From contig UQAB01000007.1 of assembly GCA_900538765.1 (NCBI GenBank), forward strand, positions 939 to 64,938: a stretch of DNA of 64,000 nucleotides. Reading direction: 5' to 3'. Each line of letters opens with the position of its first letter. Position 1 is the first letter of the stretch. Made by a program: the position numbers and the translations under genes. This document shows positions 17,079 through 59,547 of the stretch, one piece after another. The notes beneath the pieces are model-generated. The model had not been told where the DNA came from. It ran no database searches and saw only the letters and a program-made list of their open reading frames with translations. Source of the DNA: an uncultured Azospirillum sp. (lineage in GTDB: Bacteria > Pseudomonadota > Alphaproteobacteria > RF32 > CAG-239).

Positions 17079-18070
17079 ATGAATAACATTAAATTTTTAC
17101 TCTTAGGGACTTCTTTGTCCTTTATCCCTCAAACCGTAAATGCTCAGTGTGTTGCTACCCAGGATTGCGCTACTCTTGGATACACCCAAAGTAGCTGCGA
17201 TGGAGGTAAAGGGGTGAAGTGTCCCTTTGGTAACACTTGGGCTTGTTTCCCAAGCGAAGAAGATATTTGTAAAGACAATGGTTTATTGAAACTTGCTCTG
17301 GCGAAGGACAAGTTGGAATAGGCCATCCCTGTGGCAAACTATACTCTTCATGCTCTTGCTCCCCAAATTACCAATACACTTGCTCTGGTACCGGATACAA
17401 AAGCGGCTCGGGGCAAGCTTGTGACGGCAAATACGCCTCCTGTGCCTGTGCCAGCGGTTATGATTGGAAAGATGGCGCTTGTAAACAAAAAGATCGGGAT
17501 TATTCTGCTTGTAAAATTGGAACACTGTTTTATAGTGACAACACTTGTTCAGATAAGATGGAAACAAACAAGAAGTTGCTCGGTGTGGTAATTTACGAAA
17601 AAACATCCGGTGAAAACGGCTGGGTAATGACTGTAAAGAATATAGATCAAAATACCGCATGGTCAACTGAATATATTGAAACTAGTGTTAGAGATAATGC
17701 TGCTAGCGCAAGCTGCAGTAATACGGCAAAATTGGTAGCGCTGGGAGGCAATAAATATCCGGCAGCCCAGTTGGCTGATAAGTACATAGCTGGAGGAAAA
17801 AAATGGTGTTTGCCTGCACATGACATTTTAAATAATATCGCTAATCAGACGAATTTTACCAAAGTTAACAATGGCATCCAAACTGCAGGGGGAACAATTT
17901 TGGGAAACGTGTATAATCGCTATGAAATGGTCTGGTCGTCATCAGAGGTTGATAAAGACAATGCAAGAGGCTTACGAGCTGATGTGCATGGTCATTTGGA
18001 GATGCGTATCAATGGTAAGAATGATCGAGGTGTAGGCGGCAACTCAGTTCGTCCGGTATTTGCTTTTTAA
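17079..18070 (+). pseudogene. Secreted Cys-rich / DUF1566-like protein interrupted by a -1 frameshift (or sequencing error)
   Basis: Frame 0 (17079-17321) encodes a signal peptide plus QCVATQDCATLGYTQSSCDGGKGVKCPFGNTWAC. The frame of the 17558 ORF is open from 17273 and reads FIETCSGEGQVGIGHPCGKLYSSCSC...CACASGYDWKDGAC...LLGVVIYE. One extra T at the T3 run 17282-17284 would join them into ~330 aa. The C-terminus (WCLPA...VWSSSE...VRPVFAF) parallels 54272-55081. Confidence 0.7.
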
Positions 18071-39235: not shown

Positions 39236-39408
39236 TAAAAAGCGAGGAGGGCCATCATAGCCGTATAAGTGTATTCAAACACGAACCGCTGTCACTAGGT
39301 GGGCACCATATAAACAAACCACGATTTGCTCAGAGACAGTTCCCTTAATTACAATGTTGGCTCGGCAGACCTACGGAAGCTACGTACAAGACAGCTCCCC
39401 TCTATGCT
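39236..39408 (-). ncRNA. ssrS: Candidate 6S RNA
   Basis: ~170-nt ORF-free stretch immediately downstream of zapA (the position of ssrS in E. coli). The 5' AGC-ata-GAGGGGAGC pairs with the 3' GCCCTCCTCGCT. Further nested stems (CGTAGC/GCTATG, CCGTA/TACGG, GGAACTGTC/GACAG..TTC) flank a large central unpaired region. Ends in a T-run. Confidence 0.55.
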
Positions 39409-53888: not shown

Positions 53889-53965
53889 AATTATATCTGT
53901 TTAATATTTATACTGGCTTCAAAATATCATACCGGGCATTTTTGTCAATAATTAAAAAAATAAAC

Positions 53966-54271
53966 GTGTTGGCAAGGCTTTGTGATAAAAACCCCTTGCC
54001 AACAACCTCCCCTTATGCTACCCTTAACCTTAAGCGGCAGAGTTTGCCGCTGAGGGCGTAGCAACCCTTTGTAAAGATAGTCGTTAAGCATATTTACGAC
54101 TTTAAATAAGGTTATGCTGATATCTGTCTGCAACAGTGCTAGGGACGGATGTCAGCGTTATAAGGCTTTGCTCGAAAGCGCTGAGCCGTTTATCTTTACA
54201 CGGTTGCTAACATCCGCCCGCCTTTATAGAGCGGGTTTTGTTTTAACTTACAAAACAAAGGATGTTTCAAC
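53966..54271 (+). promoter_or_regulatory. Conserved structured 5' leader RNA, copy 2
   Basis: Collinear with 16791-17078. TTGCCA-N17-TACCCT (53996-54024). Helices 54059-54066:54202-54209 and 54071-54079:54191-54199. Terminator-like CCCGC..GCGGG+T4 (54217-54239). An extra hairpin GTTGGCAAGG..CCTTGCCAAC (53968-54003) overlaps the -35. Confidence 0.65.
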
Positions 54272-55081
54272 ATGAATATTAACTTTAATTTTTTATTGAT
54301 AGGGACAAGCCTGTCCTTAATTCCAAACTTAACCCGAGCTCAATGCGCGGTTACCGATTGTCAGCAACTGGGTTACACTTCTCTTCAAAAATGCGACAAT
54401 GGCTTAAAATGCCCGTTCGGCGAATATTGGGCTTGTCCAAAAGTTGAAGAAAAAGCTGTTTTAGGTGAATGTACCGGCTATGCCAAAAACTGTAAAATCG
54501 GTGATATCCTTAACAGCGATGGTACTTGTTCCTCAGATAAAATCAGTGGTAAGACACCGATAGGTGTTGTGGTTTATATTGGCGGAGATAACTGCGGTCA
54601 GGCTTTATCGTTGAAAGATTTGGGGGGTATGTATTGGTCAACAGAATATATTGATATTTCGGGGCTACCAAATTATACAAGTGTTTCAGCATTAGAGCAA
54701 GATTTTAACAGTTGCGACAATACACAGAAGATTATTAAACAGGGAACTTCTGGTATTTATCAAGCTGCTTGGGCCACAGTCAATTATGTGCCGAATTCGG
54801 CACCCGTAACAAAGAGTAAATGGTGCCTTCCAGCAGTGGGTGTTGCTCGGTCAATGATGAATAATTATGATAAAATTAATTCCGGATTGTCAAAAGCCGG
54901 AGGCGAATTATTGCCGGAACCGATTGTTCATAACTATTGGTATTGGTCGTCGTCCGAGTATAGTAACAACTACGCGTGGGTCTTCTGTACGAATAATGGC
55001 GCTGATTGGGGCGGCGTGAACGACTACAGTAAGGACTACAACAGTACCAGCAACGTCGTTCGCCCGGTGCTGGCTTTTTAG
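54272..55081 (+). CDS. Secreted Cys-rich / DUF1566-like (Lcl C-terminal-like) protein, intact paralogue
   Basis: 269 aa. Signal peptide, QCAVTDCQQLGYTSLQKCDNGLKCPFGEYWAC module, and a C-terminal WCLPA...YWSSSE...VRPVLAF pattern typical of DUF1566. Confidence 0.75.
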   Translation: MNINFNFLLIGTSLSLIPNLTRAQCAVTDCQQLGYTSLQKCDNGLKCPFGEYWACPKVEEKAVLGECTGYAKNCKIGDILNSDGTCSSDKISGKTPIGVVVYIGGDNCGQALSLKDLGGMYWSTEYIDISGLPNYTSVSALEQDFNSCDNTQKIIKQGTSGIYQAAWATVNYVPNSAPVTKSKWCLPAVGVARSMMNNYDKINSGLSKAGGELLPEPIVHNYWYWSSSEYSNNYAWVFCTNNGADWGGVNDYSKDYNSTSNVVRPVLAF

Positions 55082-58857: not shown

Positions 58858-59125
58858 AATTTTAGGATTTTATTAACTGTTCAAGGTTTGTTCTGTGCTC
58901 GTGTTCGGCGATTCTCTCAAAGCCTGCGCTGACTCTTGCTTGGCGAAAAATAAAAAACTGAGGATAAAAATGTAGTTTTTTTAACAGCTTTTTAAAAACT
59001 TCATGATACCAGCCCCGCTCTGCCGCGACTCGGGAAAATATTCCCGTTTGCTTTGCGTTATAAATAATCCTCCGGGAAGATGAAACCTCTTGCAAAAATA
59101 AAGCGATGCGTATAAACTCATTCAA

Positions 59126-59523
59126 CAGGTGGCCGGATAGCTGCGCCGCGGAAAGGAAAATCCGTTGGTGAGGAAAGTCCGGGCTTCAAGGGAACAAGAC
59201 ACCAGATAACGTCTGGCTGGAGAAATCCAAGGGAAAGTGCCGCAGAAAATTACCGCCGGAATGTTTTCCGGTAAGGTTGAAAAGGTGAGGTAAGAGCTTA
59301 CCGCGCAGGCAGCAATGTCTGTGGTCAAGGTAAACCCTGTCTGAAGCAAGACCAAGTTAGGAGAGCTTCTTTTTTTAGAAGTTATAGGGAGAGTTCCTAA
59401 TCCGCTCCAGAGGTAGGTCGCGTTGAGCTGCTTAGCGATAATCAGCCTAGATGAATAGCTATCGCTTCTGCTTTTGCTTTGGCAAAACTACTGAAGCACA
59501 GAACCCGGCTTATAGGCCGCCTG
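59126..59523 (+). ncRNA. rnpB: RNase P RNA, bacterial type A
   Basis: Universal blocks GAGGAAAGTCCGGGCT (about 59162) and ACAGAACCCGGCTTA (about 59498). P1 pairing CAGGTGGCC (59126-59134) with GGCCGCCTG (59515-59523). The minus-strand ORFs over it are artefacts. Confidence 0.92.
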
Positions 59524-59547
59524 AAGTTTTTTTAGAGGATATGTACA

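Follow-up and report, generated by a model that had tools for sequence, protein, structure and literature searches.

What is the function of a structured block of sequence that recurs ahead of paralogous genes for secreted proteins? The question is raised by a stretch of 64,000 nucleotides, here called the window, of contig UQAB01000007.1 from an uncultured Azospirillum sp. (GTDB lineage Bacteria; Pseudomonadota; Alphaproteobacteria; RF32; CAG-239). Positions 54034 to 54272, the latter being the first base of the ATG, correspond to a folded RNA of ~240 bases upstream of an adhesin-like gene (copy 2), and a second leader of the same type (copy 1) precedes a disrupted paralogue. We propose that this element is a bistable cis-acting 5′ leader RNA that controls the adhesin-like gene by transcription attenuation together with masking of the Shine-Dalgarno sequence (SD), a reading to which we assign a probability of about 0.72. 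All the evidence is comparative and thermodynamic.

Copies and distribution of the leader

The homology between the two copies extends from ca. 53987 to 54324 (copy 2) and from 16793 to 17128 (copy 1), and no others were found within the window. The leader RNA is 79% identical between them, compared with 67% for the signal-peptide codons and only 55% for the next 170 nt of the coding sequence, which bears out the initial annotation's impression that the leader is at least as conserved as the gene behind it. That annotation had described a pair of paralogues. Both copies and the homology of their leaders are real, but the actual family is much larger, with ca. 20 copies per genome. A string search with the 5′ hairpin over 185,579 genome representatives matched one species, the human-gut metagenome-assembled genome (MAG) "Pseudomonadota bacterium S36M_St_32," with 18 matches, the ca. 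eight remaining ones being chance matches in unrelated GC-rich genomes. Around copy 2, the window is identical to one contig of this MAG and must therefore come from the same species. A second pattern, derived from the core of the leader, recovered 68 further true loci, every one of them in a human-gut metagenome (ca. 21 in one assembly and ca. 12 in another). The removal of duplicates left 65 distinct leaders, 63 intact and 2 disrupted. Searches of plasmid and viral contigs gave no match beyond one unverified "phage" record (MT836653.1), described below.

All 63 intact leaders have a single orientation and directly abut the SD and ATG of a secreted-protein gene, with no intervening promoter. 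No reading frame, on either strand, is open in all the copies of the leader. The idea that leader and gene move as a unit stands insofar as 63/63 intact leaders abut the same gene family, but not as a strict bond to that family. Since a divergent member precedes an autotransporter gene, the leader appears to be modular rather than tied to one type of gene.

A promoter conserved in position

The signals that had been listed for copy 2 are all where they were placed, i.e., TTGCCA at 53996-54001, TACCCT at 54019-54024, AAGGA at 54258-62, and ATG at 54272, and the reading of the region as a promoter of its own followed by a structured transcribed leader, a terminator, and an SD is not only supported but strengthened by the comparative data. 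The consensus of 53 distinct upstream regions reads AAAAA-N4-TTGCYA ... TGnTAnCCT, with flanks that are otherwise unrelated. The A-tract, TTGCYA, TG, and TAnnnT are fixed in position, whereas the letters of the −10 box differ among regions (TACCCT, TATAAT, TAGAAT, TAAAAT, or TATGCT). It is because the boxes keep their position, and not their sequence, that we consider the leader real and transcribed. Their arrangement, TTGCYA-N17-TAnnnT plus the extended −10 TG, is that of a sigma-70-type promoter, with conserved position and −35 and −10 boxes spaced within 16 to 18 nt. The −10 of the window copy agrees with the consensus at only 3/6 positions, and the automatic promoter scanner therefore made no call. 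By its layout, this would be an extended −10 promoter with a transcription start near 54031-54033, ca. two bases before the first hairpin. The features of the locus are collected in Table 1.

Table 1. Leader elements, promoter, and downstream gene of copy 2, with the location of copy 1 (reference numbering is the window coordinate minus 54027)
Feature	Reference numbering	Window coordinates	Strand	Description
Inverted repeat		53967-77 / 53994-54004	.	11-bp perfect repeat with 16-nt spacer, spans the −35; TGTTGGCAAGG / CCTTGCCAACA
Promoter		53987-54024	+	A-tract 53987-91; −35 TTGCCA 53996-54001; extended −10 TG 54016-17; −10 TACCCT 54019-24
P0	7-12:18-23	54034-54050	+	5′ hairpin GCGGCA-GAGUU-UGCCGC
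Y0		54052-54059	+	Invariant GAGGGCGU; could pair with ACAUCC 54210-15, extending P1
P1	33-39:175-181	54060-66:54202-08	+	Three covarying pairs
P2	43-51:165-173	54070-78:54192-54200	+	8/9 pairs covary; a CUUU internal loop separates the 5′ strands of P1 and P2
P3	52-57:69-74	54079-54101	+	Hairpin AGUCGU...ACGACU with conserved loop AAGCAUA
P4	87-102:116-131	54114-54158	+	X1 GAUAUCUGUCU 54119-29; invariant apical loop GUGCUAG; Y1 GGGACGGAUGUC 54142-53
P5	137-141:156-160	54164-54187	+	Hairpin GGCUU...GAGCC; 3′ part reused in H5′ and H6
H5′	126-130:152-156	54153-57:54179-83	+	Local helix of fold B
H6	159-162:173-176	54186-89:54200-03	+	CCGU:ACGG; encloses the P2 3′ strand in its loop
X2		54209-54219	+	AACAUCCGCCC; three possible partners, Y0 (closed fold), Y1 (antiterminator), and SD
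Terminator	190-194:204-208	54217-54244	+	CCCGC(C)...GCGGG followed by UUUUGUUUU
SD (Y2)		54258-54274	+	AAGGAUGUU, complementary to X2 AACAUCC; start codon 54272
Regulated gene		54272-55081	+	269-amino-acid secreted Cys-rich protein with Lcl C-terminal/DUF1566-like domain and hypervariable C-terminal loop
Copy 1 of the leader		16802-17081	+	−35 16802-07; −10 16825-30; P0 16840-56; ATG 17079; 254 bits with model R1

The closed structure (fold A)

Both window copies share one fold architecture, with minimum free energies (MFE) of −101.4 and −92.3 kcal/mol. Compared with dinucleotide shuffles, copy 2 has a z score of −8.4 and copy 1 one of −7.5, and 0/200 shuffles folded as well. The layout of this closed structure, or fold A, was derived from RNAalifold on 15 copies and from the explicit counting of pairs over the 65 distinct leaders. 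In the latter, 96.2% of the cells are paired, versus 35 to 47% when the partners are slid by 1 to 3 columns, and both bases have changed in 278 cells, versus 27 to 67 in the slid controls; 0/500 shuffles reached the observed values. Altogether, 19 fold A pairs change on both sides, which amounts to the kind of covarying structured domain known from riboswitches. The two long-range helices that the initial annotation had drawn (54059-66:54202-09 and 54071-79:54191-99) are present and correspond to P1 and P2, with massive compensatory change. P2 is the extreme case, since it has 43 distinct arm pairs among the 63 intact leaders, with complementarity kept at a pairwise identity of only ca. 0.5. 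Elsewhere, identity is 0.83 to 0.95 in most segments and 0.69 to 0.79 in P1, J5/2, the terminator hairpin, and the spacer from the U-tract to the SD.

The remaining helices are more conserved. P0 is paired in 99.7% of the cells, and three of its six pairs have changed on both sides (for example, GCAGUC/GACUGC in locus L044), while P3 is paired in 100%, with changes on both sides in two pairs. P4 (98.8% paired) is near-invariant within the family, including its G-U wobbles, and so is the lower stem of P5, which does not vary. Y0 and ACAUCC pair in the RNAalifold consensus and never vary across leaders. The junction strands J3/4 (UUAAAAUAAG) and J4/5 (UAUAA), as well as the P4 loop GUGCUAG, have identities of 0.84 to 0.92 among neighboring helices that covary. 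The P3 loop AGCAUA is complementary to UAUGCU at the base of P4, as seen when checking by eye for an H-type pseudoknot, and these strands are essentially invariant.

The terminator and the alternative structure (fold B)

The CCCGC..GCGGG terminator that had been proposed is present at 54217-54244, followed by TTTTGTTTT. In 63/63 leaders, a hairpin of −7.6 to −12.5 kcal/mol precedes UUUU[G/U]UUUU, as expected of an intrinsic terminator, and the upper stem varies with its complementarity maintained. A simple terminator scanner missed this hairpin, whose loop exceeds 8 nt. Just ahead of it lies the strand X2, which can be engaged in several ways. Its segment AACAUCC is complementary to GGAUGUU at the SD (96% of the cells paired, invariant within the family). 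In addition, Y1 (GGGACGGAUGU), which forms the 3′ side of P4, can base pair with X2 (ACAUCCGCCC), and X2 ends in three bases that belong to the 5′ half of the terminator stem. The Y1:X2 duplex has −14 to −21 kcal/mol versus −9 to −16 for X1:Y1 and is the stronger one in all 23 sequence combinations. X1 is effectively X2 with C replaced by U, i.e., it forms G-U wobbles where X2 forms G-C pairs. The leader thus has the mutually exclusive pairings, terminator against antiterminator and SD against anti-SD, that make up an expression platform. Neither the antiterminator pairing nor the anti-SD had been noticed in the initial annotation.

The Y1:X2 pairing has its own coordinated change. Leaders that replace the C at 119 in Y1 by U also replace the G at 189 in X2 by U, which then pairs with the neighboring A118 (C119:G189 versus A118:U189). 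Both P5 subtypes show this rearrangement, and a tree computed from the remaining columns requires five events or more. Two local helices that belong to the same alternative structure, or fold B, behave likewise. The H6 pair 161:174 is G:C in 40 of the 65 leaders and A:U in 24, without G-U or A-C intermediates, and it is unpaired only in one, which is disrupted by a miniature inverted-repeat transposable element (MITE). For the H5′ pair 129:153, 51 leaders have C:G and 7 have U:A, and the competing upper pair of P5 is broken in 7 to 8 leaders that keep the H5′ pair, including all 7 with U:A. On a neighbor-joining tree, the two local helices account for at least 10 to 11 state changes; the tree is unreliable, and these numbers of compensatory events, like that for 119/189, are lower bounds. 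As H6 uses two bases each of P1 and P5 and excludes a 10-bp P2, folds A and B have to be alternatives and not parts of one structure. Judging from the comparison among leaders, both folds are backed by compensatory change.

Proposed mechanism

According to our model, the RNA would begin ca. 2 nt before 54034, and its terminated form would be ca. 210 nt long. In fold A, P0 would form, P1 and P2 would close a junction bearing P3, P4, and P5, and X1 would hold Y1 in P4 through a G-U-wobbled helix. X2 would then be available to either Y0 or the SD, the terminator would form, and the gene would be OFF. In fold B, Y1 would pair with X2, all by Watson-Crick pairs, consuming the CCC of the terminator stem and releasing the SD, while H5′ and H6 would take over from P5, P2, and P1; this would presumably be the ON state. 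Fold A is the MFE structure of the full leader, ca. 20 kcal/mol below the best structure with fold B, and also that of every transcript length tested, so the default would be termination with the gene OFF. Read-through would require something that prevents the closure of P1/P2 or P4 during transcription, and some effector, be it a small molecule, a protein, or a kinetic factor, is presumably needed to reach fold B. H6 might provide a kinetic window by holding the 3′ strand of P2 in its loop and part of P1 in its stem. With one leader used ca. 20 times per genome, the whole adhesin-like family would follow a single signal.

Some paralogues have departed from this arrangement. A group of them (L004-L007, 1728-2003, and L009-L011, 1828-2003) kept the 5′ third of the leader, from P0 to P3, and lost the 3′ two-thirds; instead, they have a T-run and then a near-consensus promoter of their own, TTGATT/TTGAAT-N17-TATAAT, beside the SD. 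They have the appearance of naturally occurring attenuator bypasses. Other leaders are interrupted at differing positions by a MITE of ca. 265 bp with 33-bp terminal inverted repeats (GGACCTAAAATATCCCTTTACAG.CACATTCAG), located at ca. 7225-7490 in L056, from ca. 1655 in L018, and at ca. 1800-1900 in L004 and L015. Both situations fit with a leader that is repressive by default.

Several points weigh against the switch model. The difference of ca. 20 kcal/mol in favor of fold A means that, by the computed energies, fold B needs outside help or the putative kinetic window. The closing helices, with 17 to 22 bp, are unusually long for a ligand-gated P1. P4, P5, Y0:X2, and X2:SD are near-invariant, which places them beyond a covariation test within the family, and the partners of H6 are merely 13 nt apart, so that they could be coinherited. 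Besides, the sequences all come from a narrow clade, with one species matched among the 185,579 genome representatives, and the paralogues probably recombine, which makes the number of independent compensatory events uncertain.

The inverted repeat upstream of copy 2

The initial annotation had also noticed a hairpin, specific to copy 2, that was thought to sequester the −35 box. The underlying inverted repeat is real, one of 21 such repeats in the window versus ca. 2 in shuffles, and it is locus specific, being absent from the other 52 distinct promoter regions. What finds no support is the sequestering, because the repeat lies upstream of the probable transcription start and cannot act within the leader RNA. 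Read on the minus strand, the left arm resembles a −35 box (TTGCCA) of the divergent membrane-protein gene. In this divergent promoter region, the repeat might serve as an operator or as a mirrored promoter element. We observed two promoter-like sites for the divergent gene on the minus strand of the window at 53921-53975, TTGACA-16-TATTTT with a TG and TTGCCA-16-AATTAT, the second of which uses the left arm of the inverted repeat.

Comparison with known RNA families

Screening of the whole window against Rfam 15 at gathering thresholds identified nothing but a 6S RNA (39245-39400, minus strand, 61 bits) and a bacterial RNase P class A RNA (59125-59528, plus strand, 271 bits). Neither did the leader region and nine other leader loci give any family above threshold when the search was relaxed to E ≤ 10. 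There was one recurrent subthreshold match, to sRNA-Xcc1 (RF02221), at 28 to 31 bits in four copies (29.2, 31.3, 29.8, and 28.5) versus a gathering score of 53. It involves window positions 54143-54227 and the same part of L014, L080, and L105, and runs end to end along the 87-nt model. With scores below 53 bits, we do not assign the leader to sRNA-Xcc1, and the match may be due to chance or to remote kinship. This integron-associated RNA of Xanthomonas resembles the three-way junction of fold B, with an outer helix and two hairpins (GCCGU...ACGGU). However, no more than the 3′ third of the leader is involved, sRNA-Xcc1 comes from another organism and genomic context, and the function of that family offers no mechanism.

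The general design is more familiar. In common with SAM-I and purine/pbuE-type platforms, it starts from a promoter of its own, closes a multihelix junction with a long-range helix, combines covarying helices with conserved junction strands, and has a mutually exclusive terminator and antiterminator that share a strand. It differs from them in the lack of a match to known aptamers, in the 17- to 22-bp closing helices, in the extra anti-SD, and in its ca. 20 copies per genome before adhesin-like instead of metabolic or transport genes. The attenuators of the trp/his/leu type share the logic of the pairings, X1:Y1 corresponding to 1:2, Y1:X2 to 2:3, and the terminator to 3:4, but the window leader lacks a conserved leader peptide and has a large closing helix and junction around the 1:2 hairpin. 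RNA leaders that gate adhesins, pili, and autotransporters, partly by premature termination, are known in the c-di-GMP riboswitches (GEMM-I/II) and in the leader of Escherichia coli agn43. The GEMM-I/II models in Rfam 15 did not match the leader, and it has no known sequence relation to these RNAs. An ops/RfaH-like element in P0 was considered and discarded, as P0, compared by eye, departs from the consensus GGCGGTAGnnTG at 3 of its 10 specified positions. No earlier description of the leader was retrieved by full-text literature searches that covered riboswitches linked to DUF1566, the conserved strings, and leader RNAs of autotransporters.

The putatively regulated genes

The proteins encoded behind the 63 intact leaders form one family. 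They start with the signal peptide MNINFKFLLLGTSLSLIP..AQC, continue with an N-terminal module rich in Cys, and have a C-terminal domain with VRPV[IL][AE]F at its end. The protein encoded after copy 2 matched Pfam Lcl_C (PF07603) with 19.7 bits (E = 0.001), below the cutoff of 34.9. Its AlphaFold2 model has a mean confidence (pLDDT) of 87, and a Foldseek search with it retrieved a Bacteroides fimbrial protein (4eps, E = 8e−6) and the Lcl C-terminal adhesin domain of Legionella (8q4e, E = 4e−5, probability 1.00). As the model matches fimbrial and Lcl adhesin folds, we consider the regulated genes to code for secreted adhesin- or lectin-like proteins. The last ca. 25 residues before VRPV[IL][AE]F are hypervariable among paralogues and often rich in Asn, Gly, and Tyr (window 54990-55081 and the ends of 60 paralogues), and this region resembles the variable binding loop of a lectin. 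The hypervariable sequences are stable between strains, which makes active diversification by a diversity-generating retroelement unlikely. The gene behind copy 1 (17079-18070) is disrupted, with an 80-amino-acid N-terminal open reading frame (ORF) at 17079-17321, a change of frame, and an Lcl_C-like C-terminal part at 17558-18070.

Related leaders in autotransporter loci

A blastn search of phage records brought up a divergent leader in the human-fecal contig MT836653.1 (L106, 556-783), which scores 117 bits with model R1, and a matching one is found in a 353-kb metagenome contig (L107, 9775-10001, 114 bits). MT836653.1 is filed as "Bacteriophage sp." and is unverified; it resembles a bacterial island with recombinase genes, and its leader is of the chromosomal type. 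At both loci, the leader precedes an autotransporter gene of 885 to 890 amino acids, the closest named homologues of which are in "Alphaproteobacteria bacterium" MAGs. The folding is the same, and the P4 pairing is kept with one U:A changed to C:G.

More distant homologues of this autotransporter, in related gut Alphaproteobacteria, are preceded by a second class of leader of ca. 315 nt (L108, 9686-10003, and L109, 9692-10002), which was not detected by R1, has no detectable similarity to the core sequence, and has no match in Rfam. It contains a 5′ hairpin and a long closing helix, the distal part of which differs between L108 and L109 by four compensatory pairs. Its X1:Y1 pairing has −14.9 kcal/mol and its Y1:X2 pairing −20.8 kcal/mol, with Y1:X2 overlapping the terminator. 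X2 is complementary to the class's own, different SD, and there is an H6-like hairpin around a variable strand. This class and the window leader thus share the design, while the junction helices and the downstream gene family are different. Judging by these loci, genes for surface proteins in these gut bacteria appear to have come under the same attenuator logic more than once.

Alternative explanations

Two of the alternatives concern what would act on the leader. It might be a metabolite or second-messenger riboswitch, with an aptamer formed by the junction of fold A or by the three-way junction of fold B and a ligand that decides between terminator and antiterminator. The conserved unpaired junction strands amid covarying helices, the classical expression platform, and the lack of any protein-coding partner linked to the leader are as expected of a riboswitch. 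We nevertheless hold this explanation as no more than tentative, given that no Rfam aptamer matched even at E ≤ 10, that the regulated genes suggest no ligand, that the long closing helices keep fold A stable without one, and that one junction strand of fold B is the variable 3′ strand of P1. An RNA-binding antitermination or translation-control protein that binds the invariant loop or the GGA strands and thereby frees Y1 or the SD is another possible, if doubtful, explanation. Fold A requires active opening, and a single factor could serve ca. 20 near-identical leaders. The SD region AAACAAGGAUGUU and the CGGAUGU of Y1 resemble GGA-type protein sites such as RUACARGGAUGU, the CsrA consensus obtained by systematic evolution of ligands by exponential enrichment (SELEX). 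However, the GGAUGU strings are already accounted for by the complementarity of the X and Y strands, none of the loci has a linked candidate regulator, and a crude motif scan of ca. 0.8 Mb, i.e., part of the genome, detected no CsrA-like ORF, which is weak evidence.

The others would do away with the cis-acting switch or change its nature. That the terminated leader of ca. 210 nt belongs to a family of trans-acting small RNAs, with the downstream gene expressed by read-through, seems improbable to us. A strong promoter, a stable fold, an efficient-looking terminator, the persistence of 5′ leader remnants upstream of genes with their own promoter, and the weak resemblance of fold B to sRNA-Xcc1 would all suit a small RNA, but an SD and ATG directly follow 63/63 intact copies, X2 can pair with that very SD, and a conserved antiterminator is sensible only in cis. 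In 170 kb of the species, too little sequence to decide, the P2 arms gave only self matches of at least 11 nt. The likelihood is lower still, to the point of being very remote, for a ribosome-mediated attenuator, in which translation of an upstream ORF from AUG 54114 (MLISV...) over X1 would free Y1. Its AUG is located exactly at the base of P4, the helices follow the 1:2, 2:3, 3:4 logic of the trp type, and an ORF of 53 codons that overlaps the main start by AUGA is found in both window copies. Yet, among 15 copies of one genome, the ORF varies from 5 to 53 codons and is found in each of the three frames with respect to the main ATG, the copies share no conserved SD at a usable spacing, and L106 and L107 lack the AUG (GUGCCGG replaces AUGCUGA). 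The variable ORF, the loss of the AUG, and the absence of a frame open throughout largely refute a leader peptide. Finally, the conserved block might have no RNA function and be a mobile DNA repeat or a 5′ region homogenized by gene conversion in a multigene family, by analogy with the conserved 5′ regions of mycoplasma surface-lipoprotein genes. The many copies per genome, the conservation that reaches into the signal-peptide codons, and the mosaic distribution of leaders on the tree are compatible with it. We find this hardly credible, since homogenization cannot yield near-random P2 arms that are complementary across 120 nt, and the complementarity of the P1 and P2 arms is above that of slid controls, the opposite of what a DNA repeat predicts. 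Moreover, the leaders lack terminal repeats and target duplications, and they always lie in one orientation and at a set distance from the ATG. A MITE or other interspersed repeat is accordingly not what we see in the leader; the genuine MITE that interrupts some leaders, with its 33-bp terminal repeats, looks different.

Implications

The bistable leader that we favor over these explanations is best described, from the sequences available, as a candidate for an orphan riboswitch-like element, both folds of which have unusually complete backing from sequence comparison. What is unusual about the family is its ca. 20 copies per genome, its adhesin-like targets, and its near-random closing helix. 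The leaders represent a natural experiment in helix evolution, in which strands with a single partner have drifted to near randomness while those with two or three partners have been frozen. The model also makes clear mutational predictions, as X1, Y1, X2, and H6 can each be broken and restored. A more speculative and, in our opinion, unlikely extension is that of a new class of RNA sensor that places ca. 20 variable adhesins (and autotransporters in relatives) under one signal, with P2, in the loop of H6, as a gene-specific "address" or tuning element. If that were true, individual paralogues could respond at differing thresholds or to matching trans-acting RNAs, and the choice of surface variant would be RNA based.

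If the switch model holds, an uncultured proteobacterium of the human gut controls its full set of secreted lectin- or adhesin-like proteins by one RNA switch, and its relatives would control autotransporters likewise. The identity of the effector would reveal the host or gut cue that governs the display of surface proteins in this lineage.

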